This document shows positions 7,510 through 46,965 of a stretch of DNA of 53,987 nt, one piece after another. The stretch's first letter is position 1, and the number at the start of each line of letters is the position of its first letter. The DNA lies in IMG/VR virus record IMGVR_UViG_3300046009_004608, positions 1 to 53,987 of that record. One strand, 5' to 3'. Below the pieces are notes generated by a model. It worked only from the letters and a program-made list of their open reading frames with translations, did no database searches and had not been told where the DNA came from. Made by a program: the position numbers and the translations under genes. This DNA comes from a virus (lineage: Duplodnaviria > Caudoviricetes).

Positions 7510-10500
7510 TGCCAATTAAAGCAGCCCTAACGATTGGAGCTAAAGGCGCAGGCAAGGTAGCCAAGGCCACTGACCAAGAGGCTTTGGTTGAGGCGGCTAA
7601 GGCGGCGGATCGGGCGGCGGCTGGACGGCGGGCTGCAGATGTAGCTAAGGCGACAGAGCCGATGAAGATCTCCGAGGCGTTAGGTAACCTAAACGTCGAG
7701 GGTAAGGGCAAATTAAAAGTCACCCAGTCCGACCGCACTAGAGTCGGCGGCGGGAATATCGGCGGCGCCATGTTCTCCGGTCTACAGCAGGTCGATCCGT
7801 TTTATGAGGGTTTGGTCTGGGGTGTCGGTGAAAAGGGCACAGCCAGCAAAATGATTGGCCAGTCCGATCCTTTTACATTTTGGTCAACCATCCTTGGCGC
7901 CGAAGACCAGTTGAAGTCAAACCCTCTGGTGTTCAATAAACTGCGTAAAGGTTTCACTGACGCCATGAAAGAGGGCAAGCTCACTAAAGAGCTTGAGAAG
8001 AAGATCAATCACAATCTGGCCCTGACCTTCGGGGAGGGTGCCGAGATCCGCGACCCGAAGATTTGGCAGAAGGCCGACACCTTTGAGAAACGGGCAGCTC
8101 TTGCAGACATTATGTTGGGCAAGGGCATCCCACCATCCAAGGGCGGCGTTGCATTAGGCGGTGAGAAGAGCGGCAAGGGCGTGATCTTCCGTCCGACTGA
8201 TATTCTGAAACAGGAGACTGAGCCGCTTTTGTTACACCCAGAGCACGGTGGAGATGTCCCAACGTTTGCGGTTGGACCGCGGCTATTTAACCTTGAGGGA
8301 AATGTCGTTCACCGTCCAGACCTGCACCCGGGTTTCCCTTATCTTCTGACCGGCGAAGATACTGGCATGGTGTTTAAGCCCGGTGAGGCCGAGAAGATCA
8401 TGCGGGATTATGCGCAGAGGCTGAAAGATCAAGGCAAGGCAAGGATCGGTTATTACGAGTGGACCTTGGGTGAAAAGGGTAAGGGCCTGCCGACTCAAGA
8501 CATCAACGAGGAATATCTCACCTACCTGCAAAAGCAGGGTATGGCCGAGGGCGGCCCAGTTGAGGATCAAGATCTGAGCCTAGAAGGCGTCATAGCTGCC
8601 GGAGAAAAAGATCGTGAGGGTATTACGGATGAGGCACTGTTCTATCTAAACCAAGAATTGCGGGAAAAAATTAGTCAATTAAGGGCCGGTCAGATAGGCG
8701 GCTCTGAGCTTCAAAAGTTTTTTCCGAATTACAGCAGTTTTGAAATTGAACGGATGTTTGGTTTTACAGACACAGAGAGCGCAAAGAATCCAGAGATCAC
8801 CAATCCGTCATCTAAAAGAGAAGAGTTTGAACGAACAATAGACATATCAAATGCGCTAAACAGAGAATTAGCGGAAGATCAAAGTCGTGGATTGTGGTAC
8901 CCAAACCTTGCCTCCCGTAAACGCAGGGGCGAAATATTTGCGCAAGGAGGATCTGTCGGATCACCCGAGGGCATCCCCTCGATGGTGTCAGACCTAGAGG
9001 CGCAGTATCAGGCATATAAGGCCGGTGGTGCGGTCCAGATGCGGGACGGCGGCACACCGATTACGGATGAGATCAGCGGGATGTTGCCCGCCCTAGATCC
9101 GAATCAAGAGTCTTATGGAAGTCCGACCTTTGAGGCTACGAAATTCATCGCCTCGCAGATTCCTAAGGCTTTGGTCTCCCCGTTTGTCGGGGCTTACAAG
9201 ACCGTTACTTCAGGGAAGTTTGGAACCCAAGAAGGTATCAAGGCAGGGGAAAAGGCTATGGAAGAGTTCATGCTTCCAAGCGGAGAGCTATCGCCTGAGG
9301 CCGCAGAGAAGGTCGGTCAGTTTGGTAAGTTTATGGAGGAGCTTGAGACCAAGTACAAGCTGCCCCCGATAATGCCCGAGGTGTTTGGGCCGGTTACGGG
9401 ATCGCTGACGGGGATGGGGCCGCAAGCCCGATCCATCGCAGGTAAGGCAGGCACGGCCGTGAAAGAGGCGGTATCTGAAGTCCCGCCGCTACCGGTTGGC
9501 CTATCGATTGAGCCGGTTGGTAAACCTATCGCAGAGGTAATCAAACCGGGCAAGGTAAAGGTGCCGGCTACGGATCTAGGCTTTTACTCCCCGATTGAAA
9601 AGGCTTTGGAGAACAGCCCCCGGAAAGCCGGTCCCGGCCAAGCCTTCATTAACGACATCATGAAGTTCAGCCCCAGCTCAGGCGAGCTTGAGGGAACGGG
9701 CATTATTGACTGGCTGAAGACCCAAAAGAATGTGACCAAGCAGGATGTGCTGGACTACCTAAGCGGCAATAAGATTGAGATTCAGGAGACCGTCCGGGGA
9801 ACAATTCTTACTCCGGATGAGCGTCTGCGATTAAATGACATCAATCGGCTGATATCTAAAGGTGAATATGTTCCTCTAGAAGAAGAAAAATGGTTTGAGG
9901 CAACAAAAGCAAGACTGCAAGAGTTTAAAGAGCCAAAGTATGAAAGCGAAAATTTAATCCTTCCGGGCGGCAAGAACTATCGGGAGATCGTGCTGAGTTT
10001 GCCTGAAGTAAAAAATGCCCCGATTGATAGTGGAAAATCTGCGGCCACAATGTTGTTTGAGCGTGAAATGATGGAGAAATATGGCGGTCAAGATTTTCCA
10101 TCGGTATATCAAAAATTAACGCCCAATGAAATTGACAAGTACGATATGTATGTCCGAGAAGATATAAATAGCCGTAAAACCGAATCAATTTTGCAAGACA
10201 AGCGCAATAACTTCCAATCCTCCCACTTCCCCGAAAAAAACATCCTCGCCCATATGCGGACGCAGGATATGAACATCGGCGGCAAGAAGACTTTGGTTGT
10301 TGAAGAAATTCAATCGGATTGGCATCAGGAGGGGCGTGAAAAGGGTTACAAGCCAAACGATTTACAAAACATGAAATTGCCTAAAAATTATTCAGTAAAA
10401 CAAGATGCAAGTTCAAACGAAAATCCTTATGCCGTATTTGATGAACAGGGAAATCCATTGACTGCTGGATTTCACAAAGATAAAGAATCTGCCCTTAATG

Positions 10501-11333
10501 AATTTTTTAGCAATAAATTTAAAAATGCTGTGCCTAATGCTCCATTTAAAAAGGACTGGTATCAGCTAGCCATCAAGCGGCTGATGAAATACGCCGCAGA
10601 TAACGACTATGACCAGATCGCCTTAGTCGGGCCTGAGGAACAGATCCGCCGTGGCAGCCTTGGAACCTATGTTGATGGCCTGACCTTTGAAAAGAATAAG
10701 GATGGCTCCATCAAATTGCTGGCCGAGAAGGGTGAGTCGGTGGTCTTGGATAAGACCGTCAAGCCTGAAGATCTTGAGCTTTATGTCGGCAAGAATGTGG
10801 CCAAGAAGATCCTAAGCACTGAGGACGTAGACGGGACGCTTACTGGGGACGATCTGATGATCGGCGGGGAAGGGATGCGCCAATACTACGGCCGCAGCTA
10901 TCCGGACTCAATCAACCGGATCGGCAAGAAGTACAACGCCAATATTGAGAAGCGTGATCACATCCTCAAAGAGTTTGATTCAAAAGATGTTGAAACAATA
11001 CCGACCGGGGAAGCGGATCGGTTTGGCAGGGAAATGATGGCCTATGGAGTTAAAGACCCCGAGACAGACGAATATATTTCGTTTGAGTATGACTTTGAGA
11101 AAGCCTTGTCTGAGGCCAATAAGAAAGCGCCTCGTACTTCCATGTGGTTTATGGACCTACCGGCAAACCTAAAATCCGATGTGAAGATTGGCCAGCCCTA
11201 CAAAAAGGGTGGCGCAGTCAAAATGCAACGAGGCGGCCCAATCATCGCCCCGTTTAACACCGTTCCAGACGTAACAGATGCGGGAAATTTAATTAACTTT
11301 TCCCTCCAACAGGAGCTAAAACGCTATGCCTGA
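7509..11333 (+). CDS. Large modular (polyvalent) probable internal virion protein, 1274 aa
   Basis: GFYSPIEKAL and SSHF...ILAHMR...LVVEEIQSDWHQEGR...APFKKDW blocks as in large phage polyvalent proteins; six hydrophobic-xx-GG motifs; patchy base composition. Confidence 0.7.
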   Translation: MPIKAALTIGAKGAGKVAKATDQEALVEAAKAADRAAAGRRAADVAKATEPMKISEALGNLNVEGKGKLKVTQSDRTRVGGGNIGGAMFSGLQQVDPFYEGLVWGVGEKGTASKMIGQSDPFTFWSTILGAEDQLKSNPLVFNKLRKGFTDAMKEGKLTKELEKKINHNLALTFGEGAEIRDPKIWQKADTFEKRAALADIMLGKGIPPSKGGVALGGEKSGKGVIFRPTDILKQETEPLLLHPEHGGDVPTFAVGPRLFNLEGNVVHRPDLHPGFPYLLTGEDTGMVFKPGEAEKIMRDYAQRLKDQGKARIGYYEWTLGEKGKGLPTQDINEEYLTYLQKQGMAEGGPVEDQDLSLEGVIAAGEKDREGITDEALFYLNQELREKISQLRAGQIGGSELQKFFPNYSSFEIERMFGFTDTESAKNPEITNPSSKREEFERTIDISNALNRELAEDQSRGLWYPNLASRKRRGEIFAQGGSVGSPEGIPSMVSDLEAQYQAYKAGGAVQMRDGGTPITDEISGMLPALDPNQESYGSPTFEATKFIASQIPKALVSPFVGAYKTVTSGKFGTQEGIKAGEKAMEEFMLPSGELSPEAAEKVGQFGKFMEELETKYKLPPIMPEVFGPVTGSLTGMGPQARSIAGKAGTAVKEAVSEVPPLPVGLSIEPVGKPIAEVIKPGKVKVPATDLGFYSPIEKALENSPRKAGPGQAFINDIMKFSPSSGELEGTGIIDWLKTQKNVTKQDVLDYLSGNKIEIQETVRGTILTPDERLRLNDINRLISKGEYVPLEEEKWFEATKARLQEFKEPKYESENLILPGGKNYREIVLSLPEVKNAPIDSGKSAATMLFEREMMEKYGGQDFPSVYQKLTPNEIDKYDMYVREDINSRKTESILQDKRNNFQSSHFPEKNILAHMRTQDMNIGGKKTLVVEEIQSDWHQEGREKGYKPNDLQNMKLPKNYSVKQDASSNENPYAVFDEQGNPLTAGFHKDKESALNEFFSNKFKNAVPNAPFKKDWYQLAIKRLMKYAADNDYDQIALVGPEEQIRRGSLGTYVDGLTFEKNKDGSIKLLAEKGESVVLDKTVKPEDLELYVGKNVAKKILSTEDVDGTLTGDDLMIGGEGMRQYYGRSYPDSINRIGKKYNANIEKRDHILKEFDSKDVETIPTGEADRFGREMMAYGVKDPETDEYISFEYDFEKALSEANKKAPRTSMWFMDLPANLKSDVKIGQPYKKGGAVKMQRGGPIIAPFNTVPDVTDAGNLINFSLQQELKRYA

Positions 11334-13860: not shown

Positions 13861-13862
13861 CC

Positions 13863-14042: not shown

Positions 14043-14224
14043 GGTACACATCCGACTTTATTGGCGCCGTAAAGGCGCGTCAGGCGCTGATCCAGCAGTC
14101 CATGGCACAGGGTAACCCTGTCGATTGGTCTGCCTATCAGCGTTTAGTCGGGGAATATCAAGGACTTGAACAGGCTCTTTCCATCCTTAACAACCTTTTA
14201 AAGGAAGAAGATGAAGATGAATGA
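14039..14224 (+). CDS. Conserved small head-module protein
   Basis: DWSAYQRLVGEYQGLEQAL pattern; lies between portal and GroES. Confidence 0.75.
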   Translation: MRYTSDFIGAVKARQALIQQSMAQGNPVDWSAYQRLVGEYQGLEQALSILNNLLKEEDEDE

Positions 14225-14639
14225 ACCGGTGGCGGGTGAATCCGCCGATTTGCGGGATGCCTTTCCTGCTGTAGACCCCGGTGCGAAGCCTTTGGGCGCA
14301 AGAATTTTGGTTCAGTTGCGCCGCACAAAGAAGAAAACAACTGGTGCCGGGATTATTTTGGTCGAAGAGACCAGAGAAGCCGAAAAGTGGAACAACATGG
14401 TGGCCAAAGTCGTTGAAATTGGCCCGCTTGCTTTCAAAAAGCGAGACACCATGGAACCATGGCCTGAGGGGTCGTGGTGCAAAGTAGGTGACTACTTACG
14501 AGTTCCTAAGTGGGGTGGTGATCGCTGGGAGGTAAAAGTCCCGGGCGAAGAAGAGCCAGCCCTTTTCATGGTCTTAAACGACCACGAAGTGATCGCCAAG
14601 GTCACGGGTAATCCCTTAGAAATGAAGGCACTGGTATGA
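14211..14639 (+). CDS. groES: Phage co-chaperonin GroES (Cpn10)
   Basis: KPLGARILV...TGAGIIL mobile loop, AKVVEIGP, CKVGDY, LNDHEVIA. Confidence 0.88.
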   Translation: MKMNEPVAGESADLRDAFPAVDPGAKPLGARILVQLRRTKKKTTGAGIILVEETREAEKWNNMVAKVVEIGPLAFKKRDTMEPWPEGSWCKVGDYLRVPKWGGDRWEVKVPGEEEPALFMVLNDHEVIAKVTGNPLEMKALV

Positions 14640-15655
14640 GCGAGACACAAAACGCACAGAAAGACCTAGAGTTAATCAAGGTCGAAGAGTCTGCCGACGG
14701 ATCTGCGGTTATTGAGCTTCCGGCAGACATTCCTAGCCCGGATGTAGAAGAAAAACCGGCAGAAGTTGCCGCTTCTGATGACTCTGAGGGGTCAGATGAG
14801 GAGGACGAGGCCGCCCGAGAGGCAGAAATGGCCGATGGCGGGGAGGTAGATCCTGACCAAGAGGCTGTTCGGGAGGCAAAAAGGGCCAAAAGACGGGCTC
14901 GCAAGGAGTATCACAAGCAGGTAGCCGCTGAAAAGAACATTGAGCTGCAGCTTTTAAGGCAGGAAAACCAAGAAATGCGGGAGCGCATGGCCGTTTTAGA
15001 GCGCAAAACGCATGGATCTGAGATTGCTCAGATAAATAAGGCGATTGAGGACCAAGAAACTCGGATTGCCTTTGCCAAAGCCAAGATCAAAGAGGCTACC
15101 GAAAACGGAAACGGCGATCTTTTGGCTTCTGCCCAAGAAATGTGGTTTGAGGCACGAAAAAACCATGAAGCCTTGCAGGAGCTGAAGAAAAGAGCTACCG
15201 CACCGCAAAAGGAACAGACAATCCGGGCGCCAAATCCAATCGTTCAGCAGTACGCCAACGAGTGGATGAGCGAAAACTCATGGTATGACCCAAACGGCCG
15301 GGATCAGGACTCAGCCATCGCCCTTCAGATTGACAAACGACTGTCCGAGGAGGGGTTTAACCCCGAACAGAAACGTTATTGGACGGAATTAACGAATCGG
15401 TTGCGGAAGTATTTGCCGCACCGATATACTGACGATGCAGACGATGAGCCTGCTCAACCAGTTAGAAAGCCGAGGTCGGTAGTGACGGGATCAGGGCGTG
15501 AAAACGCAACGAGTAGTGGCGGCAAGGGGAATACGTTTACGTTAACCCCTGAGCAAGTTCGTGCCATGAAAGATGCGGGTATGTGGGATGACCACGAAAA
15601 ACGCATGAAAATGATCAAACGCTACGCCGAAGCAGCTCGGCAACAAAGGAGTTGA
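14636..15655 (+). CDS. Probable capsid scaffolding protein
   Basis: Acidic N-terminus, long coiled coil, WMSENSWY, C-terminal LTPEQVRAMKDAGM; upstream of the capsid genes. Confidence 0.7.
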   Translation: MSETQNAQKDLELIKVEESADGSAVIELPADIPSPDVEEKPAEVAASDDSEGSDEEDEAAREAEMADGGEVDPDQEAVREAKRAKRRARKEYHKQVAAEKNIELQLLRQENQEMRERMAVLERKTHGSEIAQINKAIEDQETRIAFAKAKIKEATENGNGDLLASAQEMWFEARKNHEALQELKKRATAPQKEQTIRAPNPIVQQYANEWMSENSWYDPNGRDQDSAIALQIDKRLSEEGFNPEQKRYWTELTNRLRKYLPHRYTDDADDEPAQPVRKPRSVVTGSGRENATSSGGKGNTFTLTPEQVRAMKDAGMWDDHEKRMKMIKRYAEAARQQRS

Positions 15656-16191: not shown

Positions 16192-16226
16192 TGAGGGGAG
16201 GACTTTCAACCATTAAGGAGTAAGAA

Positions 16227-16839: not shown

Positions 16840-17754
16840 ATGGCAGCCCCGATGCGCAGTACCGACTTTAGAAGCATAGTTGAGCCAATTCTCAATGAGT
16901 GCTTCGACGGAGTCTATGATCAGCGTACCGATGAATGGTCACGGGTTTTCCGTGAGCAAGAAGGTATCCCCCGTAACTACCACGAAGAGCCTGTCCTTTA
17001 TGGATTTGGCGCAGCACCCCAACTGCCTGATGGAACTCCGGTTACCTATCAGCAGGGTGGTGTTCTGTTCCTCAAGCGCTATGTGTACTCGGTGTATGGC
17101 CTTGCCTTCGCCCTGACCAAAGTGCTGGTTGAGGACGGCGACCATATCCGTATTGGTCAAGTTTACGCTCGTCACCTTGCCCAATCTTTGATTGAGACCA
17201 AGGAGACACTGAGCGCAAACGTGCTCAACCGTGCGTTTAACTCTTCGTATCCCGGCGGCGACGGTGTTGCACTGAATAGTGCCTCTCACCCAATCGTCAA
17301 CGGCACATTCAGCAACCTGCTGACCACGCCCGCTAACCTGTCACAGACCTCGCTTGAGCAGATGCTCATTCAGATCCGTCAGGCAGTGGACAACAACGGC
17401 AAGAAGATCCGTCTGGTTCCGCGTCAACTGATCGTGGCACCGGGCAACGTCTTCCAAGCTGAGGTTCTGCTGAAGTCCGTTCTTCGCGCTGGTAACGCAA
17501 ACAACGACATCAACCCGATCAAGTCGATTGGTCTTCTGGACGAGGGCGCAGCAGTTCTGTCGCGTCTGACTTCCGCCACCGCATGGTGGGTGCAGACCGA
17601 CGCTCCTGAGGGCATGAAGTTGCTGATGCGTCGCAAGCTAGAGAAGACGATGGAAGGTGACTTTGAGACTGACACCATGCGCTACAAGGCAACTGAGCGT
17701 TATGACGTCGGCTTCACTGATCCCCGTGCCGTTTACGGTACACCGGGTGTTTAA
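16840..17754 (+). CDS. Major capsid protein (HK97 fold, Mu gpT-like family)
   Basis: YGLAFALTKVLVED, GGDGVALNSASHP, PRQLIVAP, EGDFETDTMRYKATERYDVGFTDPR; strong RBS and high-expression codon usage. Confidence 0.92.
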   Translation: MAAPMRSTDFRSIVEPILNECFDGVYDQRTDEWSRVFREQEGIPRNYHEEPVLYGFGAAPQLPDGTPVTYQQGGVLFLKRYVYSVYGLAFALTKVLVEDGDHIRIGQVYARHLAQSLIETKETLSANVLNRAFNSSYPGGDGVALNSASHPIVNGTFSNLLTTPANLSQTSLEQMLIQIRQAVDNNGKKIRLVPRQLIVAPGNVFQAEVLLKSVLRAGNANNDINPIKSIGLLDEGAAVLSRLTSATAWWVQTDAPEGMKLLMRRKLEKTMEGDFETDTMRYKATERYDVGFTDPRAVYGTPGV

Positions 17755-17777: not shown

Positions 17778-18806
17778 ATGCTGACTAATTTCCCTAACGG
17801 GATTACTAGCTTCGGTGTGCCTGTTCTCGGAACCATTGGTGGCCTTCCGTTTACTGGAAACTACTATTTCGTAGACCCCGTAAATGGTGCTGATGGTAAC
17901 GATGGCACACCTGAACTACCGCTGAAGACTCTGTACGGAGCTTTGGCAAAGTGCACCGCTGGCAATAACGATGTCGTCGTCCTGATGGGCGATGGCAGCT
18001 CTGCCGGCTCTGCTCGACTGTCAACCGCTTTGGCTCAGACGATTGATTCTTCGGCAACCGCGGGAACCCTGAATTGGAACAAAAACGCCACGCACCTAAT
18101 CGGTGTGGCTGCTCCCACCATGGTGGCGCAGCGGGCGCGTATTGCTCCCCCGACGGGAACCTACACTGCTGCAACCTTTAACAGCGACGCTTTCATCAAT
18201 GTCACTGCCTCGGGTTGTTACTTTGCTAACCTGTCCGTTTTCTGTGGATTCTCCACAGGTTCGGCCAGCATGATTGCGTGGACCGATTCTGGTGGTCGTA
18301 ACGCATACAGCAACGTCAACATCTATGGCATGGCTGATGCAGCTTCTGCTGGCGGTGCAAACGCTCGTACCTTAAAACTCAATGGTGGTGGTGAGCACAC
18401 CTTCATCAATTGCGTTTTAGGTGGCGATACGATTGCCCGCAGTGCAGCAAATGCAACGGTTGAACTGGCCGGCGGAACGGCTCGCAACATTTTCGAAGGT
18501 TGCGTATTCCCGTTCCAAGCAAGTGCCGCAACTCCCATTGGACTGAAAGTTGGTGCTGCCTCTGGCATGGACCGTTACGCTCTGTTCAAGGGATGCTCGT
18601 TTATCAACAACGTTGGATCGACCTCCACAACCCTGAGTGCTTTTGCAACTCTGGCAGCTTCGGCTGGTGGCCAAGTCGTAATCCAAAACTCGTTGAGCTT
18701 GGGCATCACGGAGTTTGGCTCTGACGCCGCTTCCCTTGGTCAGATTTACGTCGATATGGCTGCGCCGAGTGCATCGGCTGGCGGTATCGCTGTGAATCCG
18801 AGCTAA
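17778..18806 (+). CDS. Beta-helix (pectin-lyase-like) head fibre/decoration protein
   Basis: YYFVDPVNGADGNDGTPELPLKTLYGALAKCTAGNNDVVVL cap motif followed by repeating xFxNCxF strands. Confidence 0.65.
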   Translation: MLTNFPNGITSFGVPVLGTIGGLPFTGNYYFVDPVNGADGNDGTPELPLKTLYGALAKCTAGNNDVVVLMGDGSSAGSARLSTALAQTIDSSATAGTLNWNKNATHLIGVAAPTMVAQRARIAPPTGTYTAATFNSDAFINVTASGCYFANLSVFCGFSTGSASMIAWTDSGGRNAYSNVNIYGMADAASAGGANARTLKLNGGGEHTFINCVLGGDTIARSAANATVELAGGTARNIFEGCVFPFQASAATPIGLKVGAASGMDRYALFKGCSFINNVGSTSTTLSAFATLAASAGGQVVIQNSLSLGITEFGSDAASLGQIYVDMAAPSASAGGIAVNPS

Positions 18807-18854: not shown

Positions 18855-19877
18855 ATGGGTCAGTTTAAGCCGATGGTCAAGATGATGACTACGGAGCCCA
18901 CCGTTGAGCTAAAGCTCAAAAAGGGCGGTGCCGTCATGATGAAAAAAGGCGGCAAGGCAGTAAAGAAGATGGACGGTGGGGCTTTGGGAGCCATGTCCGG
19001 CACCCCGGCTTTAATCGGACGTCCTGCTGTAAACGCTCCAGTTCGCTCTCCGATGCGTCCTACGATGACTGCTCGCCGCAAGGCAATGGCAGTTCGTCCT
19101 ATGGGCCGCACTATGAAAGAGGGCGGAGAGACCGAAAAAGAGCACAAGGAAGAGGCCAAAAAAATGGCTTCGACCGAAAAGAAGCTGGAAAAACACGCTT
19201 CTATGCCGGCATCTAAAGCCCATAAAGGCTTAAAGACCGGCGGTGTTGCTAAAGGTCAGGGCGGTTATGCCACAGGTGGTGTGGTGTACGGGCAAGGTGG
19301 TTACAAGCACGGCGGCAAGATTAAGAAGTATGCCAAAGGCGGAATCATCACCGAGCAGGAGGGTTCAAGGGACGCAGGTCCCTATAAGAACACTCTGATG
19401 CACACTGCAAAACCTGATCACTCGCCTGCTAAAACAGGAGGTGTTCGTCTTGGTAATGCAGGTGGTTACAAATCAGGCGGTATGGCACAAGGTATGCAAA
19501 AACCTCAAAAAGAGCAGAAAGAACAGATGAAACAAAGTTACAAATCTGCTGATGACTCTTATAGGGAAGAAGGCAAGGGCTTTGCTTACAAGAAAGGTGG
19601 TGCCGCAAAAAAGTATGCTAATGGTGGGTCGGTAAATGACTCTGGTAAGGCGGTGAATATGCCGCAGGGCCAGAAGAAACCCTCCACACCAGTAAGCATC
19701 AATCAGCTTTCCGGAACCTTTAAAAACGGTGGCAAGGTTATGACTCCAGCGGAGAAGCGTCTGACAAAGACATTTGACAAGGAAAATGCCCCGGCAATGA
19801 AGGCTGCTAAGGCCGACAGTAATGAGGTCTACAGCAAATACGGAAAGATGAAAATGCGGTCCGGCGGTATGTGCTAA
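18855..19877 (+). CDS. Highly basic low-complexity protein with 12-14 xxxGG motifs (probable internal head protein or polyprotein)
   Basis: LKKGG, MKKGG, MKEGG, LKTGG, YATGG, YKHGG, YAKGG, YKSGG, YKKGG, YANGG, FKNGG, MRSGG; TAAGGAG RBS. Confidence 0.8.
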   Translation: MGQFKPMVKMMTTEPTVELKLKKGGAVMMKKGGKAVKKMDGGALGAMSGTPALIGRPAVNAPVRSPMRPTMTARRKAMAVRPMGRTMKEGGETEKEHKEEAKKMASTEKKLEKHASMPASKAHKGLKTGGVAKGQGGYATGGVVYGQGGYKHGGKIKKYAKGGIITEQEGSRDAGPYKNTLMHTAKPDHSPAKTGGVRLGNAGGYKSGGMAQGMQKPQKEQKEQMKQSYKSADDSYREEGKGFAYKKGGAAKKYANGGSVNDSGKAVNMPQGQKKPSTPVSINQLSGTFKNGGKVMTPAEKRLTKTFDKENAPAMKAAKADSNEVYSKYGKMKMRSGGMC

Positions 19878-21032: not shown

Positions 21033-21590
21033 ATGCCAGCTAAATCTAAGGCCCAATTTAGGCTCATGAAAGCGGCTGAGTACAACCCAAAGTTTGCCAA
21101 GAAGGTTGGAATCAAGCCTTCGGTGGCTGCTGAATATACCGAGTCTAACGTGGGCAAAAAGTCTTACGCCAAGCTGCCTGAGGCGATGAAACAAGGTGGT
21201 GTAGTTCATTCATTGAAAAAAGCAGGTTTTTATGAGCCGTCTAAAAATCAAGCTGAACGGTTAAAAATTGTTAACAAAGTAACGACCAAACCCCAACGGT
21301 TAAAAATAGTAGAAAAGTTGTTTTCGGATAAAAAATTAAAAAGTGGTGGTGATGTGTCTCTTGCCGTTGGTCGTGGTGAAAAACTGCCGGCAAGCCAAGG
21401 TGCTGGACTAACCGCTAAAGGCAGGGCTAAATACAACCGGGAGACCGGATCTAATTTGAAGGCACCGCAACCACAGGGAGGAAAGCGGCGTGATTCGTTC
21501 TGTGCTCGTATGGGGCCAGTGGCGGAAAAAAGCGAGCGGGGAAGTCGTTCCCGCGCATCAATGAAACGCTGGAATTGCCCGGGGTGGTAA
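21033..21590 (+). CDS. Basic tri-modular virion protein
   Basis: Modules MPAKSKAQFRLM.. / VVHSLKKAGFY.. / GLTAKGRAKYN...RRDSFCARM..WNC separated by MKQGG and LKSGG. Confidence 0.75.
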   Translation: MPAKSKAQFRLMKAAEYNPKFAKKVGIKPSVAAEYTESNVGKKSYAKLPEAMKQGGVVHSLKKAGFYEPSKNQAERLKIVNKVTTKPQRLKIVEKLFSDKKLKSGGDVSLAVGRGEKLPASQGAGLTAKGRAKYNRETGSNLKAPQPQGGKRRDSFCARMGPVAEKSERGSRSRASMKRWNCPGW

Positions 21591-31546: not shown

Positions 31547-33481
31547 ATGAGCAAAAAATGGCCCGGCGGTTTTATTAAGCCGATACCTCCGACACCGACC
31601 GGCCCGTATCAAGACGGGGGTGCAACAGGGGTTTGGACGCTTGATCAGATGTCCTATTGGCTAAAGCAGGGTCTGTGGCCGATTGCTGGAAACGTGGCGC
31701 CAATTGGGTTGTTTGGTGGGGGGTTTGATGTTGGTTCATCAAATGTTATTGATAGCGTTGTGATTGCCACAGCAGGGAATTCAACAGATTTTGGAGACCT
31801 AAGTTTATCTAGATATGGTTTGGCAGGTTGTGCGTCAAATGTTCGTGGAGTATTTGGCGGAGGTACAACTGGAAGTAGTTCGAACGTAATTGACTACGTC
31901 ACAATTGCAAGTGCTGGTAATGCCACAGATTTTGGTGATTTAAGTGTCGCTAGACACTATTTAGCGGGTTGTTCAAATTATGTTAGGGGAACATTTGGTG
32001 GAGGAACAACAAGTAATGCTGCCGCAAGCCTTAATGTAATTGATTATATTACGATTGCTTCTGCCGGTAATGCAACAGACTTTGGTGATTTAACTGCAGC
32101 TTTTCAGTACATTGCAAGTTGTGCTTCGTCTACTCGTGGCATATTTGGAGGCGGAACAAATACAAGTGGTACAGACGTAAATATTATTAATTACGTAACA
32201 ATAGCCTCTACTGGAAATGCAACAGACTTTGGTGATTTGACGTTAGCAAGATACGCACTAACATCATGTTCATCAGAAACTAGGGGGACTTTTGGTGGTG
32301 GTGGAACTGGTCCAAGTAATGTAATTGATTACATCACAATTGCTTCCGTAGGAAATGCTACAGATTTTGGAGATTTGTTGGGCAACAATAGATTTCTAGC
32401 AAGTTGTGCCTCAAATGTTCGCGGTCTGTTTGGGGGAGGCTATGACGGCAGTGTTTATCTTAACGTTATTCAATTTATAACAATTGCAAGCACTGGAAAC
32501 TCTACCGATTTTGGAGATTTAACTGGGGCAAGAGGTTATTTAGCAGCCTGCTCCAACGCCGCATCAGCCGTTCAACCCACGCCGACCAGCGCAGCTATGG
32601 CGTTTTTTGGTTCCGGTGAAACAAGCGAGGGAAGACAAACTGGAATTCAATATGTAAACATTGCAACTACTGGAAATGCTTATTTATTTGGTGATTTAAC
32701 TTTTGGAGCGGTTACACCTGCCGCCTGTTCGTCGTCAACTAGAGGTCTTTGGGCGGGTGGAGAATTAAGTGATGGAACTACAAATACAAATGCAATTGAG
32801 TTTGTAACATTTTCAACTTTTGGCAAAGCAACTGATTTTGGAGATTTGCTTGGTGGAGCAAGATTACAAGGGGCTTGTTCTAGCGAAACCCGTGGTGTCT
32901 GGGGTGGCGGTCAAAATGCATCAGCAGTTATACAAAATGTTATTGAATATGTAACTATTGCGTCTGCCGGAAATTCAACAGATTTTGGAGATTTAACCGT
33001 AACTAGACAAGGATTGGCTGGATGCGGGTCAACAACAAGAGGTTTATTTGGAGGTGGTGAACCAGCAAGTGGTTTATCTAATGTTGTGGATTACATAACC
33101 ATTGCGTCTGCTGGGAACGCCACGGATTTTGGTGATTTAACTGTTGCAAGACAAAGTTTGTCTTCATGCTCATCATCAACTAGAGGTTTGTGGTTTGGTG
33201 GAGAGTCTGCCGGATCTGTTAAAACAAACATCATTGACTATGTAACTATTGCGTCGGACGGGAATGCTACCGATTTTGGGGATATAACTACTGGAACAAT
33301 AAGATGTTCATCGGCGTCTTCGTCAACAATAGGACTGGTTGGCGGAGGAATTCAAGCATCAAGAACAAATGTTATAGAGTATGTAACTATTGCATCGACA
33401 GGAAATGCTACAGATTTTGGTGATTTGTCTGGGGCAATTTCTAGTGGAGCAGCTTGTTCCAATGCCCACGGTGGACTATAA
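31547..33481 (+). CDS. Tandem double beta-propeller protein (12 repeats), paralog of 29699
   Basis: Same architecture and linker; ends SNAHGGL. Confidence 0.82.
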   Translation: MSKKWPGGFIKPIPPTPTGPYQDGGATGVWTLDQMSYWLKQGLWPIAGNVAPIGLFGGGFDVGSSNVIDSVVIATAGNSTDFGDLSLSRYGLAGCASNVRGVFGGGTTGSSSNVIDYVTIASAGNATDFGDLSVARHYLAGCSNYVRGTFGGGTTSNAAASLNVIDYITIASAGNATDFGDLTAAFQYIASCASSTRGIFGGGTNTSGTDVNIINYVTIASTGNATDFGDLTLARYALTSCSSETRGTFGGGGTGPSNVIDYITIASVGNATDFGDLLGNNRFLASCASNVRGLFGGGYDGSVYLNVIQFITIASTGNSTDFGDLTGARGYLAACSNAASAVQPTPTSAAMAFFGSGETSEGRQTGIQYVNIATTGNAYLFGDLTFGAVTPAACSSSTRGLWAGGELSDGTTNTNAIEFVTFSTFGKATDFGDLLGGARLQGACSSETRGVWGGGQNASAVIQNVIEYVTIASAGNSTDFGDLTVTRQGLAGCGSTTRGLFGGGEPASGLSNVVDYITIASAGNATDFGDLTVARQSLSSCSSSTRGLWFGGESAGSVKTNIIDYVTIASDGNATDFGDITTGTIRCSSASSSTIGLVGGGIQASRTNVIEYVTIASTGNATDFGDLSGAISSGAACSNAHGGL

Positions 33482-35104: not shown

Positions 35105-35417
35105 CGCTGACGGCACTATTCCTTCTTTCCTCTGCCTGCACCCCGAAGGGGTAGGTGGGGTATTTGTCGTTGGAGACTCTTCAACACCTAGCCCCCGCGA
35201 CATGGTAATGATTGGCCTGTCTGAGGATGACAACACCGGGGATGCTGAAGTTATCGCTACTCAAGCTGATCTTCAGGCTTACCTAGCCAACGTCGGGGCT
35301 AACTGGACGCAGCCTGACCCGGCCAATCCTACTGACCCGGAAGCCACAATTCCTTTTGACCCTGCCGCCGCAGCCGCTTGGGTGTGGGGCCGCAAGAACG
35401 CACTGAATGGAGCTTAA
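35073..35417 (+). CDS. Hypothetical protein
   Basis: AAGGAG RBS, ATG 35073 (MAHHCIKYRL...). Confidence 0.75.
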   Translation: MAHHCIKYRLNADGTIPSFLCLHPEGVGGVFVVGDSSTPSPRDMVMIGLSEDDNTGDAEVIATQADLQAYLANVGANWTQPDPANPTDPEATIPFDPAAAAAWVWGRKNALNGA

Positions 35418-35419
35418 TC

Positions 35420-35683
35420 ATGGCTAAAGACTTTCCTGATCTGACAGGTGATGGCAAGGTAACCCAAGCCGATATTCTTAAAGGCAAGGGAGTCTTTAAA
35501 AAGGGCGGAAGCACTGACAAATGGATTCAAAAGGCAATTTCTAAGCCCGGGGCGCTGAAGAAACAACTAGGCGTTCCTGCCGATAAAAAAATTCCTGCCA
35601 AAACTCTGAATAAAGCCGCCAAGGCTCCGGGGAAGCTAGGTCAGCGGGCGCGATTGGCTAAAACACTACGAGGTTTTGATTGA
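35420..35683 (+). CDS. Basic bi-modular small protein (EF-hand/dockerin-like loop plus basic module)
   Basis: FPDLTGDGKVTQADIL, then FKKGG, then WIQKAISKPGAL...GQRARLAKTL. Confidence 0.75.
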   Translation: MAKDFPDLTGDGKVTQADILKGKGVFKKGGSTDKWIQKAISKPGALKKQLGVPADKKIPAKTLNKAAKAPGKLGQRARLAKTLRGFD

Positions 35684-35880: not shown

Positions 35881-35881
35881 T

Positions 35882-38852: not shown

Positions 38853-38854
38853 TC

Positions 38855-42401: not shown

Positions 42402-42403
42402 CT

Positions 42404-44161
42404 ATGGCAACCTTAGAAGATATTCAAGCATATTTAACTGCAAATCCAAATATGACGGATCAGCAAATTGCTGCCGCCATGAACCAGTTTAGTGTCTCTC
42501 CGCTTCAGATGTCTCAAGCCACTAACGTTCCGCTTGAAAATATTCAGCAGAGATTTGATGCAGCTGTGGGACAAGACCAAGCCATCGCTAATCGAATAGC
42601 AGAAATTCAACAATCGGGTGGTAGTGAATACGATATCGCTAGAGAGGCGGCGGCAAACAAAATATCAGCCGCAGACTTGTCCCGCATTACTGGGCTTTCC
42701 GCCGATCAAATTATGCAAATGTCAGGCGGAGTTTTAAAAGACTCTACTATTCCTCCGCGACCCACTTTCAGCGGTATGGTTGCCGAATGGAATAAAAGCC
42801 ATGAGGCACGGTTCGGAGCGCCTGTAAATTTGGCAACGTCTGGCCAAGAAAACCTGCAAAAACAGGCCACTGAACTTGCCGCAGAAACTAAGCGGCGTCA
42901 GGAAGAGTGGGATAAAACCTATGGAAATACGCCTGAGGGCAAAATTATTAAAGAAAATCCGCCACCGGATTGGCGAGATATCTATGAGCCTTGGTCGCAG
43001 AGTCATCAAAAACAATTTGGAAACATAATTGATCGTCCGTGGAATACAGATGAGGCTACTATCAAGCAAAAAAGAGAGCTTGATGATAAGTACATAAAGT
43101 CTATTCAGGATTACAACGCAAAATACGGAACTAACATCAGTCCAGATCCGAATGTATTGGGAAGTTTCAGTCAGCCCAGTGAGTTTTATAAAGAGCCGGA
43201 AAAAGACAAGTGGTATGAAAATCCGTTAAATATAGCCGCTCTTGCCGCGCTAGCTTATTTTGGTGCGCCGTATGTTACTAACGCACTAAGCAGTTTAAGC
43301 AGTCTAGGCGCTGCGGAAGTTTTACCGGGTGCTGGCGCTGAAGTCTTTGCTTTGGGCGATGTTGCTGTTCCTACAATCACATCCATTCCAGCAGTAGAAG
43401 CTGCCGGGACACTCGCTGCTAGTAATTTAGTGAACAATTTGCCCGTAGAAATTATTGATAAAAGCATACCTTTTGATCCAAAGGCTTACGATGCAATTTC
43501 AACGACTACGGGTTTATCTAACCTTGCCAAAGCTGGATTAGAAACTCTTACTCAAAATCCGCTTACAACGCTACGCACCGCAAATACGGTAAAAAATATT
43601 TACGATGCTTTTACTGGAGGTGGTGGGGACACTGGTGGTTTAACTGGCGGTTTAGATAAAAACTCTTCTAGTCTGCTATCGCAAGGTTTGGCCATGCTTC
43701 AGCCGGGTCAATCGCAATATGCTCTACCCGGAAGCCTTGAGTCTACTTATCTCGCTCCGGCATCCGGCGCCACCCAACAGCAGGCTCAGTTTCTGTCGCA
43801 GTTAAAGCAGTTATATCCTGAGCTTCGAGGTGCAGACGATAACCTGTTATCAACGATTGCCTCCCGGACCGGCGTAGCTGCGGCTAAGGGTGGCCATATT
43901 CCTGAGTTTATTACTGGCGCTACCGGACACTATGTTCAGGGTCGTGGAGATGGTCAGTCAGATGAGATTCCAGCCATGCTTGCCGACGGTGAGTATGTGT
44001 TTGATGCCGACACCGTAGCCGCACTTGGGAACGGTTCAAACAAGGCAGGTGCCAAGATGCTGGACAAAATGAGAGAAAACATCCGTGAGCACAAGCGTAA
44101 AGCGCCTACGGACAAAATACCTCCTAAGGCCAAGTCGCCTTTGGAATACCTAAGGGGTTAA
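42404..44161 (+). CDS. Probable ejection/internal virion protein with C-terminal GDGQSDEIPAMLADGEYV domain
   Basis: Position after the nozzle gene; hydrophobic mid-segment; C-terminal domain preceded by AAKGG. Confidence 0.65.
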   Translation: MATLEDIQAYLTANPNMTDQQIAAAMNQFSVSPLQMSQATNVPLENIQQRFDAAVGQDQAIANRIAEIQQSGGSEYDIAREAAANKISAADLSRITGLSADQIMQMSGGVLKDSTIPPRPTFSGMVAEWNKSHEARFGAPVNLATSGQENLQKQATELAAETKRRQEEWDKTYGNTPEGKIIKENPPPDWRDIYEPWSQSHQKQFGNIIDRPWNTDEATIKQKRELDDKYIKSIQDYNAKYGTNISPDPNVLGSFSQPSEFYKEPEKDKWYENPLNIAALAALAYFGAPYVTNALSSLSSLGAAEVLPGAGAEVFALGDVAVPTITSIPAVEAAGTLAASNLVNNLPVEIIDKSIPFDPKAYDAISTTTGLSNLAKAGLETLTQNPLTTLRTANTVKNIYDAFTGGGGDTGGLTGGLDKNSSSLLSQGLAMLQPGQSQYALPGSLESTYLAPASGATQQQAQFLSQLKQLYPELRGADDNLLSTIASRTGVAAAKGGHIPEFITGATGHYVQGRGDGQSDEIPAMLADGEYVFDADTVAALGNGSNKAGAKMLDKMRENIREHKRKAPTDKIPPKAKSPLEYLRG

Positions 44162-44163
44162 AG

Positions 44164-46965
44164 ATGGCTACACCAGAGCAATTAGCACAGTTTCAAAATT
44201 TGGTGCAAAGCGGTGATTTTGCTAAAGCGGCTACGCTTGCACAGGGTCAGGGATTTGGCGCTCAAGATGTGACCAATTACATCAATACTAATCCTGCCTT
44301 ATTTGGGTTTCCTAGCGAAGTTCCGTTAAGTGCGGTTCAGCCATTTTTTACGACAGGAACAACTGGTGCGCCAGCCACGACTGCAACTACAACAACTACG
44401 CCAACGAAACCGACAACCCCAACGACTCCAACGACCCCAACAACACCGTCAACCACAACCCCGGTAACAACGGTCACTACGCCCACAACGACCCCGACTC
44501 AGACCGGGGGTAGTTTTACTCAAGGTGCGCCGCTTCCGAACATTACGACCACCCAGACGCAGGCAACCTCTGCCCCGTCTTGGTACATGGATTACTTGTC
44601 CGGGCTTGCCCAAAAGAGCGCTCAGGCCGCTCAAGGGGCTCAATATGTCGGTGCATCCCCGCTTCAACAGCGGGCTTTTGATCTGACCGGTCAAGCGGCT
44701 GGCCAATATGCTCCGATGCTCCAAAAGGGTGCGGGGTTTGCTGAGACCGCCGGTGGTGCTAAGGCTTATCAAGACATCGATAAGTACATGAACCCCTATG
44801 TTCAGGATGTGGTTAAACGCATCGGGGAACTAGGGCAACGTCAAATTGAGCAAAATATCGCCCCCGGTGTTACTTCCGGTCTTGTCGGGGCTGGTCAGTT
44901 TGGCTCCAAAAGGGGCGCAGAAGCTCTTGGACAGACTCTCAGGGACGTCCAGCAAAACATCCTAGGTCAGCAGTCCCAAGCCCTACAGTCGGGCTATACG
45001 CAAGCCTTAGCGGCCGCACAAGGGGATCTATCCCGTCAGTTGACCGCTGGCCAGCAGTTAGGCGCCCTTGCCCAAGCCGGTCAGGGCATGAATGTCGCTG
45101 ATATCAATGCCCTTGCAACCCTCGGTGCGCAGCAACAAGCCATCCAGCAAAATAAGGAACTCTTTCCTCTACAGCAGCTGGCTAATCAGGCGGCAGTCAT
45201 GCGTGGCTACGCAGTCCCGACCAGTGTTTCAACCCAATACACCGGACCGATTCCGGGAGCATATGCGGCTTCCCCGCTTCAGCAGATCGCTGGTATTGCT
45301 GCCCTTCTTGGTGGAATGAGTAATACCAAATTGGGTACAACCGCAGGCAACGCAATAAGCAAAGCCCTAAGCAGCATATTTAGTAGCGGCTCTAGCGGCA
45401 CAAGCGGCGGAAATATGACCGATTTAGATTGGTTAAATTGGGCAAAATCCGGATCTTCTGGAACACCGGGGGTGCCGTTTTCGTTAGAAGACCTAGCGAA
45501 TATGCCAGTAAAAGACGGTGGCTCCATAAAAAAGTATCGTCACGGCGGTGATGTGCGCGGATACGCCACCGCTGGTTCGGTAAGCCCGCCCCCTATCCCG
45601 GGGGGTCTATCCGTAGACTCAAAAGCCCGCGAAGATTATTTCGCTGAACTAAACAAGTTACTTGAGGCAATTGAGGAACGGGGTGAAGGCGGCCCAAACC
45701 TGTTTCAGGTAGCTGGAGCCTTACTTGATCCCGGTCGAACCGGTGGAGCCGGAGAGGCTTTAGGTCGGGCATCTGCCGTAATGGGCGAGAAGATTGAAAG
45801 AGAGCGGGAGAGAATGTTGCCGCTTGCTCAAGCTAGAGCCAGCATTGCAGGTCAGAAATTCCAAATTGAAAACGAAGCACGGGCTCTTGAGTTGGTTGCC
45901 AAAACTTTGGGAACGACTCCAGAAGTCATTGGTAATCAAATTTCCGACGGCACGGTTCCGACCGATATGCTTTCAAGAATGACTCCGGGGTTATTTCTGA
46001 CGGTCAATAAACTTGATCCGAAACTTGGTTCTGCCTTGAAGTCCATGTTTGATATGGATGTTGAGCGCAAGAAACTTGTTCAGGCCGATGTCACCGCCGG
46101 AATGAATTACGCTGAAGGAATTGCTAAGTACGGTTCAGACTTTGCAAAACTTCTGCCAAGAGGAATTAGGGTTCCGGGTATGCCAGAGCCGGTAACGGCT
46201 GGGGCTACAAGCTCGCCACAGCCTCCGAGACCTGCTGTTCCAACTTCTGCCGCCCCGGCGAAGGCTCCTCCAGAGGCTACGTCAGATTTAGAGGGAATGC
46301 CTCTAGCCGCCCGAGCTGATGTGTTGCGTGACCGTGCCAAGACAAGGGAAGAAGAAACTAAGCCCATGCGGGCAGACATCATGCAGTGGACGCCCCAAGC
46401 GATCAGTTTGGCTAATAACCGTTTAGATGAGCTGATTGACATCTCTAATGATCCCGAGGGAGCTAGAGTTTTTGGTCTGATGCAAAAGCAAGGTATTTTG
46501 CCTGCCATGGCCGCTGCAGCTCAAGAAGCCGTAAGGGTTGGACAAACCACAGTGACGTTCCCTGTTCAGCAGTTTTTAGAAAAACTAAATCTAACCCCGC
46601 CGCAACAGAGAATTTTGCGTAGAGCATCTCAGTTGTTGACTGAAGAGTTTTTTGAAAGCGCTAAACTTACTCGATCCGTATTGGGACCGCAGATGTCTAA
46701 TGCCGATACGATCATCCAGCAGCGCCCCATGGCAACCATTGAGGATGCCGCATCAACGGTTGATTACTGGGCCAAACAGCGCAAACTTCTAAACTATCAG
46801 CGTAGAGATATGTTTGGAGCGCTGGATAGATGGGATCGTCGAGTTGGTGTACAGGCCCCGGCAAGCCAATTCTTCACTTCACGCGAGTATCAAGAGATCG
46901 TTAATAAGTACGACGACCTGCAGAAACAGTTCCGTCAGAAGTATCCCGGCTTTGGAGCACGATAA
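44164..46965 (+). CDS. Probable DNA-ejection (pilot) protein, 933 aa
   Basis: YMNPYVQDVV...GQFGSKRG and Q/A/G-rich helices; Thr/Pro linker; VKDGG and YRHGG motifs midway. Confidence 0.7.
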   Translation: MATPEQLAQFQNLVQSGDFAKAATLAQGQGFGAQDVTNYINTNPALFGFPSEVPLSAVQPFFTTGTTGAPATTATTTTTPTKPTTPTTPTTPTTPSTTTPVTTVTTPTTTPTQTGGSFTQGAPLPNITTTQTQATSAPSWYMDYLSGLAQKSAQAAQGAQYVGASPLQQRAFDLTGQAAGQYAPMLQKGAGFAETAGGAKAYQDIDKYMNPYVQDVVKRIGELGQRQIEQNIAPGVTSGLVGAGQFGSKRGAEALGQTLRDVQQNILGQQSQALQSGYTQALAAAQGDLSRQLTAGQQLGALAQAGQGMNVADINALATLGAQQQAIQQNKELFPLQQLANQAAVMRGYAVPTSVSTQYTGPIPGAYAASPLQQIAGIAALLGGMSNTKLGTTAGNAISKALSSIFSSGSSGTSGGNMTDLDWLNWAKSGSSGTPGVPFSLEDLANMPVKDGGSIKKYRHGGDVRGYATAGSVSPPPIPGGLSVDSKAREDYFAELNKLLEAIEERGEGGPNLFQVAGALLDPGRTGGAGEALGRASAVMGEKIERERERMLPLAQARASIAGQKFQIENEARALELVAKTLGTTPEVIGNQISDGTVPTDMLSRMTPGLFLTVNKLDPKLGSALKSMFDMDVERKKLVQADVTAGMNYAEGIAKYGSDFAKLLPRGIRVPGMPEPVTAGATSSPQPPRPAVPTSAAPAKAPPEATSDLEGMPLAARADVLRDRAKTREEETKPMRADIMQWTPQAISLANNRLDELIDISNDPEGARVFGLMQKQGILPAMAAAAQEAVRVGQTTVTFPVQQFLEKLNLTPPQQRILRRASQLLTEEFFESAKLTRSVLGPQMSNADTIIQQRPMATIEDAASTVDYWAKQRKLLNYQRRDMFGALDRWDRRVGVQAPASQFFTSREYQEIVNKYDDLQKQFRQKYPGFGAR

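Follow-up and report, generated by a model that had tools for sequence, protein, structure and literature searches.

A recurring Φ-[A/K]-x-Gly-Gly-x-Val peptide at joints and tails of late-block proteins in a clade of freshwater phages

A seven-residue peptide, hydrophobic-Ala/Lys-x-Gly-Gly-x-Val (Φ-[A/K]-x-G-G-x-V), recurs far above chance in proteins encoded by a tailed phage (IMG/VR record IMGVR_UViG_3300046009_004608; the whole stretch of 53,987 nts is called the window here) and by its relatives. It is one shared signal under selection at the protein level. It is restricted to late-block proteins, as the initial annotation had proposed, and its carriers are of the head-module and ejection types. 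The motif lies in disordered sequence and marks module boundaries; where genes are split, the upstream module keeps it as part of its C-terminal tail. Our preferred reading, to which we give a probability of about 0.4, is that of a handle for docking or retention. A survey of publications turned up no account of the motif.

Enrichment of the motif in the window and in related loci

Over 58 ORFs of the window, the strict pattern [FYML][AKR]xGG was observed 22 times, compared to 4.60 expected from 2000 whole-protein shuffles (sd 2.13, shuffle maximum 12). All copies listed in the initial annotation (nt 8541-45576) were present, and a wider pattern returned two others missing from that list, IRNGG in ORF 38855 and VAAGG in ORF 46965. 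The tag had been called genome-wide. The enrichment is real, but the excess rests on three or four genes of the window: ORF 18855 (12 copies vs 0.37 expected), ORF 7509 (5 vs 0.46), ORF 21033 (2 vs 0.09) and ORF 14636 (1 vs 0.02, P 0.02). Copies in ORFs 35378, 42404, 44164, 38855 and 46965 are individually at chance level (P 0.06-0.35). The capsid protein, terminase and replication proteins had been described as motif-free; the pattern scan agrees and found none in the portal either.

The same pattern was counted in 80 related loci, the clade comprising at least 594 related stretches in IMG/VR. Four families were enriched: the polyvalent proteins encoded before the portal (76 observed vs 7.7 expected), the scaffold-like proteins (21 vs 1.4), the 18855 family (697 vs 24.3) and the 21033 family (69 vs 4.7). 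No copy occurred in the major capsid protein (MCP), GroES-like, 15652, 16227 and adaptor families of these loci, and the portal family had 3 copies vs 5.2 expected.

An artefact of composition was ruled out by several controls. Shuffling in 20-residue blocks gave the same outcome as whole-protein shuffling, in the four enriched families the forward pattern outnumbered the reversed one, GGx[AKR]Φ, by a factor of 3 to >60, and the forward pattern stood far above reversed and permuted patterns. The initial annotation had also pointed to x-V/I after the motif; V occupies position +2 after GG in 41-62% of copies in three of the four families. Copies are often paired, with a spacing of 8-9 residues. 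Gly-Gly codons of the motif are used like those of other Gly-Gly pairs, indicating a constraint on the peptide, not on the DNA, and a DNA-level recombination hot spot was rejected on the same grounds. Mimicry of the GroES mobile loop, in which a hydrophobic tripeptide follows GG, was set aside, as this tripeptide is mostly missing from the motif.

Table 1. Coordinates of motif-bearing proteins, motif copies and other features in the window
Feature	Coordinates	Strand	Remarks
Zincin-like ORF (ORF 2741)	2741-3382		Only HExxH ORF; SprT-like match 22.1 bits, below 25.6 cut-off
Polyvalent protein (ORF 7509)	7509..11333	+	1274 aa; three motif-joined modules; gene lies between terminase and portal
VALGG214	8148-8162		ORF 7509
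MAEGG345	8541-8555		ORF 7509
FAQGG477	8937-8951		ORF 7509
YKAGG503	9015-9029		ORF 7509; tandem pair with MRDGG511
MRDGG511	9039-9053		ORF 7509; tandem pair with YKAGG503
YKKGG1231	11199-11213		ORF 7509; followed by MQRGG
Scaffold-like protein (ORF 14636)	14636..15655	+	MADGG65 in acidic N-terminal region, just upstream of conserved basic helix
MADGG65	14828-14842		ORF 14636
Major capsid protein	16840..17754	+	No motif; most conserved protein of the clade
Repeat protein (ORF 18855)	18855..19877	+	340 aa; Lys/Gly/Tyr-rich, disordered; 12 (strict) or 13 (wide) motif copies
Three small modules (ORF 21033)	21033..21590	+	Last module DUF6321
MKQGG52	21186-21200		ORF 21033; joint
LKSGG102	21336-21350		ORF 21033; joint
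Small two-part protein (ORF 35378/35420)	35378..35683	+	Single motif copy, P 0.06
FKKGG	35495-35509		ORF 35378; between halves
Ejection-type protein (ORF 42404)	42404..44161	+	C-terminal part tape-measure-like
AAKGG493	43880-43894		ORF 42404; followed by ...GEYVF segment
Ejection-type protein (ORF 44164)	44164..46965	+	933 aa
VKDGG449, YRHGG458, variant YATAG467	45508-45576		ORF 44164; between N and C parts

Module joints and tails in polyvalent and small multi-module proteins

By its architecture ORF 7509 is a polyvalent protein, large, composed of several unrelated modules and encoded among virion genes. The six copies reported initially were recovered, five of them by the strict pattern (Table 1). 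The protein itself has no Pfam match; ART-PolyVal (PF18760) was found in one ortholog (L067, E 8.9e-11). Its modules are shuffled among 21 orthologs, and all large ORFs examined upstream of the portal in relatives are mosaic. In 12/22 polyvalent orthologs (2.2 expected), a copy lies within 30 residues of the C-terminus. An AlphaFold2 (AF2) model of the core module (pLDDT 78) had matches in BFVD, at E values reaching 2e-28, to proteins labelled 'Large polyvalent protein associated domain' or ART-PolyVal-like, and no PDB fold was found by Foldseek at E<=0.001. A protease hidden in this conserved core was dismissed in view of these matches, limited to uncharacterised polyvalent proteins. ORF 7509 and its counterparts, being large, mosaic, multi-module and encoded beside the portal, resemble the polyvalent proteins described by Iyer, Burroughs, Anand, de Souza and Aravind (2017; PMC5512222). 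However, a term search of the main text of that paper returned neither 'linker' nor 'glycine' and no junction motif, while its supplementary alignments may show linkers. The same text attributes processing to a zincin-like peptidase domain, and no such domain is present here.

The third module of ORF 21033 belongs to DUF6321 (PF19846; residues 124-180, E 1.2e-13, 52 bits vs a gathering cut-off of 28.5). Among relatives, the number of modules varies from one to three, and others have split genes; in the split forms the motif is kept on the upstream protein (...MRGGGSCW-stop, ...LKRGGCCW-stop) and a separate DUF6321 gene follows. The domain was matched in 371 phage records, mostly of cyanophages, and is a separate small ORF in the two records examined, those of the cultured aquatic phages S-TIP37 and DSL-LC05. 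The proposal that the motif separates modules occurring alone elsewhere is thus borne out by stand-alone DUF6321 proteins and by relatives whose genes are split exactly at the motif. In other phages, DUF6321 is fused to ART-PolyVal, SLT or MuF domains. Other phages provided a set of 101 unrelated proteins with DUF6321, in many cases large and of polyvalent type; it contained 207 motif copies vs 24.7 expected, with at least one copy in 54. In this set and in the 21033 family, the motif is located away from the extreme C-terminus.

A more general association with boundaries was observed among 71 multi-motif proteins, where 37% of 2632 local-alignment endpoints (not mutually independent) fell within 10 residues of a motif, compared to 9% for random positions. 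Scaffold-like orthologs carry the wide pattern at the same place in 23/71 cases and near-variants in others. For the C-terminal half of ORF 35378, a weak PHROG match was the only one obtained.

Ejection-type proteins and lambda gpH

Residues 500-561 of ORF 42404 match PHROG tape-measure families (E 8.6e-8). The single copy in this protein is not significant alone; Caulobacter phage RW carries MARGG at the equivalent place. The motif cluster of ORF 44164 is conserved in a related locus (L085). At the four loci examined in more distant relatives, the N and C parts are separate genes, and two of the four N-part proteins carry the motif in their tail, ending ...YKAGGLASIKPKKD-stop and ...ADGGAVMMADGGVP....

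The initial annotation listed FATGG, YATGG and MRDGG in the lambda tape measure protein gpH. This is correct: the copies start at residues 733, 778 and 842, so that all three fall within residues 733-846 (0.25 expected), in the last 120 residues of the protein. FATGG of gpH (Tape_meas_lam_C, PF09718) is followed by ...GEFVF, as is AAKGG of ORF 42404 by ...GEYVF. The likeness is confined to this Φ-A-x-GG ... GE[YF]VF arrangement: ORF 42404 has no match to PF09718 or any other Pfam family at E<=0.01, and the setting differs, since this phage appears to be a podovirus, as judged by its SU10-adaptor-like proteins. A search with gpH residues 690-853 returned, among the best 120 matches, only near-identical copies carrying PF09718, almost all from E. 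coli or Shigella. As described in the text of PMC12617516, gpH sheds a fragment of ~14 kDa (gpHC) from its Gly-rich C-terminal region, the site and catalyst being stated as unknown, and part of gpHC remains bound to gpI in the tail tip. All three motif copies are located in this Gly-rich region. Segment 818-849 is nevertheless modelled uncleaved in mature lambda tails; its coiled coil (818-842) rests on the gpI tripod, with MRDGG842 at the coil end, inside the modelled segment (PMC10721106, PMC12617516).

A disordered repeat protein with many copies

The 12-14 copies announced for ORF 18855 agree with our counts (Table 1), and each of the 120 homologs examined, among >5146 at E<=0.001, contains 8-14. 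The first 25 residues are nearly invariant, as is, without exception, the C-terminal Cys (end ...MRSGGMC). This invariant Cys after the last motif argues that the tail works intact. AF2 with a 100-row alignment gave a mean pLDDT of 51, just four helices and no strands, with the motif-rich parts predicted to be disordered; a folded repeat such as a beta-solenoid was accordingly rejected. No match was obtained by tblastn of ORF 18855 against the phage collection, probably an effect of the low-complexity filter.

Search for a cognate protease

Among the ORFs scanned with Pfam (30 also with PHROGs and 10 also with NCBIfam), no protease family was found, nor any virus-encoded cognate cysteine protease. 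As had been noted before, no head protease of HK97 or T4 type was recognisable in the profile searches. Solved-structure, protein-atlas and NCBIfam searches gave nothing informative. A regex scan for JAMM and zincin signatures returned only ORF 2741 (HEVAH) and one JAMM-pattern string in a short unannotated ORF. The SprT-like ORF 2741 was rejected as a conserved partner, its catalytic part having no counterpart in 10/10 related records. A RadC-like JAB signature was seen in one ortholog only (L060), and this clade is considered unlikely to bind a ubiquitin-type tail in the text of Iyer et al. (PMC5512222). The initial annotation had suggested a shared signal for proteolytic maturation, capsid loading or ordered ejection. 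A shared and selected signal was confirmed; as these searches returned no protease conserved with the motif, cleavage there is hypothetical.

Possible functions of the motif

The motif could be a processing site, cut after GG by a Gly-Gly-specific protease that comes from the host or is encoded, in unrecognised form, by the phage. Cutting would release the modules of polyvalent proteins and trim the scaffold, the ejection proteins and the ORF 18855 protein, as in adenovirus and ASFV, and lambda gpH* and gpHC might be products of the same activity. We regard such processing as rather unlikely. It agrees with the motif being present at every module joint, with relatives that encode the same modules as separate genes split there, and with the scaffold-like protein being a carrier too. 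Sites of adenain and ASFV pS273R similarly place Gly-Gly after a hydrophobic residue, often Met, and the dsDNA virus proteins that contain them are core, scaffold and internal ones; however, the adenovirus protease consensus, (M/I/L)-X-G-G, is one residue shorter than Φ-[AK]-x-G-G, and no CE-clan or other protease was found in this phage. Iyer et al. propose in their text that polyvalent proteins are processed into units (PMC5512222), and the fragment lost by lambda gpH comes from the region holding all three copies (PMC12617516). Cutting is harder to reconcile with the protease searches, with the predicted core of ORF 7509, whose model has no protease-like fold match, with copies paired 8-9 residues apart or gathered by twelve in one disordered protein, and with the conserved Cys of ORF 18855, which would be lost. 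According to the published structural descriptions, moreover, lambda MRDGG842 is uncut in virions (PMC10721106) and the T5 tape measure is cut after Arg1127, not GG (PMC10038345). A general Gly-Gly-directed maturation system of tailed phages, with the motif as the site of a protease possibly of host or JAB type, seems to us quite improbable. Were it true, polyvalent proteins would be cut into effector modules, scaffold and ejection proteins trimmed, ORF 18855 chopped into small basic peptides and gpH*/gpHC made, in a phage counterpart of adenovirus and ASFV maturation.

Alternatively, the motif may be a passive hinge or fusion scar, a favoured flexible Gly-Gly linker inherited with shuffled modules, with no partner and no cleavage, whose turn leaves modules free to fold on their own and to pass through the tail channel. 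Its location in disordered boundary linkers, and main carriers that are likely ejected, are compatible with this. We judge it unlikely, as it does not account for the conservation, in unrelated modules, of a hydrophobic residue at -4, Ala/Lys at -3 and Val at +2, for the excess over the reversed pattern or for the number of copies in each examined 18855-family member; at extreme C-terminal tails, moreover, nothing is linked. In another possibility, ORF 18855 would be a disordered sticker-and-spacer hub whose Tyr/Met-Lys-x-Gly-Gly segments bind each other. The result would be a gel inside the particle, co-assembling the tagged cargo, or else a coat that makes the capsid adhesive. The composition, repeat pattern and predicted disorder of ORF 18855 point this way, as would a likeness to kinked Gly/aromatic segments and mussel adhesive proteins, and 18855-like genes and motif-bearing cargo co-occur in this clade and in MW202545 and are both absent from RW, CRP-901, HTVC023P and MW202785. 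We nonetheless find it very improbable: phage DSL-LC04 has motif-bearing polyvalent-like and tape-measure-like proteins and lambda has the motif, both in the absence of an 18855-like protein, which weakens the case for ORF 18855 as a universal hub.

For the preferred docking or retention handle, Φ-[A/K]-x-G-G-x-V would probably form a tight turn with a hydrophobic side chain on either side, and the carriers are probably proteins carried in the phage particle. The motif would belong to the disordered C-terminal tail of individual virion 'cargo' modules and become an inter-module joint when these fuse into polyvalent or multi-module small proteins. It could then tether its carriers multivalently to a conserved part of the particle (the procapsid interior, the portal or tail lumen, or the ORF 18855 protein), which would serve their packaging and, later, their ordered release. 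Support comes from the motif on extreme tails and on the upstream piece of split genes, and from its disordered context in ORF 18855; gene fission exactly at the motif counts against this preference, as a cleavage site predicts it too. Also against it are DSL-LC04, which lacks an 18855-like protein, and the 21033 family and DUF6321-bearing set, with motifs away from the extreme C-terminus. Cleavage may occur as well, but the data can be explained without it, and cargo loading through the motif is plausible. Encapsulin cargo-loading peptides and carboxysome CsoS2 repeats tether cargo inside icosahedral shells, and encapsulin shells share the HK97 fold with phage capsids. They resemble the motif as short Gly-plus-hydrophobic peptides in disordered tails or repeats, but their sequence is different, and capsid binding of the phage motif would be hypothetical.

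Many phages use polyvalent and ejection proteins to bring enzymes and anti-defence modules into the cell, and little is known of how these proteins are packaged, ordered and released. A single conserved peptide at joints and tails, shared by an abundant clade of freshwater phages, by unrelated polyvalent proteins and by lambda gpH, offers a concrete experimental handle. With it, module boundaries can be defined in annotation; it also points to a tag with which foreign cargo could be loaded, and gives candidate positions in gpH, whose cleavage site and catalyst are unknown according to the text of PMC12617516. It also draws attention to the 18855 family, with >5000 uncharacterised members a very common virion-module gene.

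The head module

The MCP is a candidate docking partner for the motif. It is 94-97% identical over the 80 loci, third positions of conserved codons being just 58% identical. No binding partner was identified; complex prediction with the MCP and ORF 18855 residues 1-60 gave no answer (score 0.00) and weighs neither way. The layout of the head genes is the same in Caulobacter phage RW, whose MCP is 77% identical, and in Roseobacter phage CRP-901, yet neither has motif-rich proteins; if the partner were the capsid or the portal, these two phages would possess it without using it. The phage also encodes a GroES-like protein (ORF 14211).

Enrichment of the motif in the window and its relatives

The pattern [FYML][AKR]xGG was searched in the 58 ORFs of the window (named by start coordinate) and compared with 2000 shuffles of each protein. 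Every copy listed by the initial annotation was recovered, and the span it gave, 8541-45576, runs from MAEGG in ORF 7509 to YATAG in ORF 44164. The enrichment test against shuffled controls that it proposed yielded 22 copies against 4.6 expected, with a shuffle maximum of 12. The excess was carried by ORF 18855 (12 versus 0.37 expected), ORF 7509 (5 versus 0.46) and ORF 21033 (2 versus 0.09); the single copy in the scaffold-like protein had a P of 0.02, and those in ORFs 35378, 42404 and 44164 were each non-significant alone. A composition effect was excluded by block shuffles and by reversed or permuted patterns. Three consecutive Gly-rich paralogs (phrog_19111) hold many GG pairs and no copy of the motif, and constitute a useful internal negative control.

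Relatives of the major capsid protein (MCP) are encoded in at least 594 IMG/VR stretches, of which 80 loci, 94-97% identical in MCP, were kept. Here the motif was concentrated in four families: 18855 (697 observed versus 24.3 expected), polyvalent (76 versus 7.7), 21033 (69 versus 4.7) and scaffold-like (21 versus 1.4). It also occurred in most other large ORFs 5′ of the portal that could not be aligned to ORF 7509, and was absent or depleted in the MCP, portal, GroES-like, adaptor and fibre families and in those of ORFs 15652 and 16227. The resulting logo was Φ(M/F/Y/L)-[A/K]-x-G-G-x-[V/A/I], with copies frequently paired 8-9 residues apart, and codon use indicated that constraint acts on the peptide.

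Median identity across the same loci was 63% for the portal, 50% for the scaffold-like protein, 48% for ORF 18855 and 29% for ORF 7509. Purifying selection holds both MCP (96% amino-acid identity, only 58% at third positions) and the nearly invariant N-terminal 25 residues of ORF 18855 (93% and 49%); since its synonymous sites are well diverged, the constraint on MCP is unusually strong.

Position at module joints and protein ends

ORF 7509 is a polyvalent protein in the sense of Iyer et al.: an ART-PolyVal domain is present in one ortholog, and proteins labelled polyvalent in BFVD come up as structural matches for the AF2 model of ORF 7509's conserved core. Modules are reshuffled among its orthologs with motifs on their flanks; for instance, its N-terminal module corresponds to residues 561-896 of the protein of one related locus (L046), between YAKGG549 and YKDGG889. 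The 71 proteins with at least two motifs gave 2632 internal alignment endpoints, which are non-independent; 37% of them lay no more than 10 residues from a motif, compared with 9% for random positions. A copy lay within the last 30 residues of 12 of 22 polyvalent orthologs, compared with 2.2 expected.

Relatives of ORF 21033 comprise one to three modules, and in split versions of the gene the upstream product terminates in the motif and a short Cys-containing cap, followed by the DUF6321 gene. Similarly, ORF 44164 is a fusion whose halves are separately encoded in more distant relatives (four loci examined); two of the four upstream halves end in the motif, one as a tandem pair. As gene splits keep the motif on the upstream piece, it is part of that module's tail.

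More than 5146 homologs of ORF 18855 were found, and all 120 examined carry 8-14 copies. The protein is predicted to be disordered; it ends in GG-x followed by an invariant Cys. Cys-containing C-terminal caps adjoin the motif elsewhere too: split DUF3008-like proteins of relatives end GG-SCW or GG-CCW, and DUF6321 proteins end C-PGW.

Range beyond the clade

DUF6321 matched in 371 phage records, cyanophages predominating; in S-TIP37 and DSL-LC05, the two inspected, the domain has a small ORF of its own inside or adjoining the packaging and head-assembly genes. Long proteins of other phages that join DUF6321 to ART-PolyVal, SLT or MuF domains contained 207 motifs versus 24.7 expected (at least one copy in 54 of 101 and at least three in 43), with spacings recurring between proteins. 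The tags that the initial annotation gave for the lambda tape measure protein gpH proved correct: FATGG733, YATGG778 and MRDGG842 (0.25 expected). Of the other 38 lambda CDS examined, three contain the motif, once each and at chance level.

MW202545 (MCP 90%) shows both the motif excess and an 18855-like gene. DSL-LC04 carries the motif in polyvalent-like and tape-measure-like proteins, yet has no 18855-like gene. Neither a motif excess nor an 18855-like gene was seen in Caulobacter phage RW, Roseobacter phage CRP-901, Pelagibacter phage HTVC023P or MW202785, although their head-gene layout is shared.

Polyvalent proteins, tape-measure C-termini and DUF6321 are already known. No description of a junction-and-tail motif common to them, nor of the 18855 family, was found in the literature searched, and a term search confined to Iyer et al.'s main text returned neither.

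Possible docking, cleavage or hinge roles

Both docking and cleavage fit what is seen at module junctions and gene splits. A putative docking or retention peptide (probability about 0.4) is favoured by the motif's position on protein tails, its tandem pairs and multivalency, the hydrophobic residues conserved on its flanks and the conserved Cys cap. That the motif is a cleavage site is rather unlikely. Published work on lambda (PMC12617516, PMC10721106) describes the removal of ~14 kDa from the Gly-rich C-terminal part of gpH, stating site and catalyst as unknown, and places gpH residues 818-849, MRDGG among them, uncleaved in the tail tip, resting on the gpI tripod. In T5, cleavage of the tape measure occurs after Arg1127 (PMC10038345). 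No conserved protease was found. The SprT-like ORF (HEVAH zincin signature; 22.1 bits, below cut-off) is not conserved in relatives, where matches cover the N-terminal 80 residues only, and a C-terminal RadC-like JAB signature (HNHPSG...SxxD) occurs in a single polyvalent ortholog (L060:588-4619). A passive hinge is a slightly weaker candidate than cleavage, and a sticker for self-association is improbable. Docking or retention thus remains our preferred, tentative reading.

Genome layout

The 53,987-base window, a complete virus record, has a podovirus-like layout.

Coordinates (or ORF start) of features in the window
Position	Feature	Region
	RusA; DUF968/YbcO-like nuclease	left end, ahead of late block
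1674-2027	Rap1a-like protein	left end, before terminase genes
2741-3382	weak SprT-like ORF	left end, ahead of late block
	small and large terminase	packaging/head block
7509	polyvalent protein, 1274 aa	packaging/head block
11326	portal	packaging/head block
14211-14639	GroES-like (Cpn10)	head genes
14636	scaffold-like	head genes
	two conserved unknowns	head genes
16840-17754	MCP	head genes
17778-18806	Gly/Ala-rich, 342 aa	past MCP, before 18855
18855	repeat protein	past MCP
18855-18929	its first 25 residues	
19872-19877	its final Cys (end)	
21033	DUF6321, among small head-module genes	past MCP
21591, 38217	SU10-adaptor-like proteins	
24912-27720	glycosyltransferase, FkbM-methyltransferase, heptosyltransferase-like cluster	tail-fibre region
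28467-33481	Gly-rich paralogs (410, 615, 644 aa)	
35420-35500	N-terminal half of ORF 35378/35420	
	collagen-like fibre, glycosyltransferases, lysozyme	tail and lysis region
42404, 44164	ejection-type proteins	before replication genes

No head protease was recognised in annotation scans of the left-end, head, tail, ejection and replication ORFs. The slot between portal and scaffold gene is a frequent head-protease position; here it holds the GroES-like gene, conserved in Caulobacter phage RW, CRP-901, HTVC023P, DSL-LC04 and MW202785. The Rap1a-like protein (E 1.2e-15) belongs to a type VI secretion immunity family. The glycosyltransferase cluster has counterparts in one of the 80 related loci. 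The Gly/Ala-rich ORF 17778, found in only 13 of the 80, may encode a fibre or decoration that is accessory to the capsid. The small protein 35378/35420 carries a DxTGDGKVTxxD stretch, presumably resembling an EF-hand or dockerin-type calcium loop.
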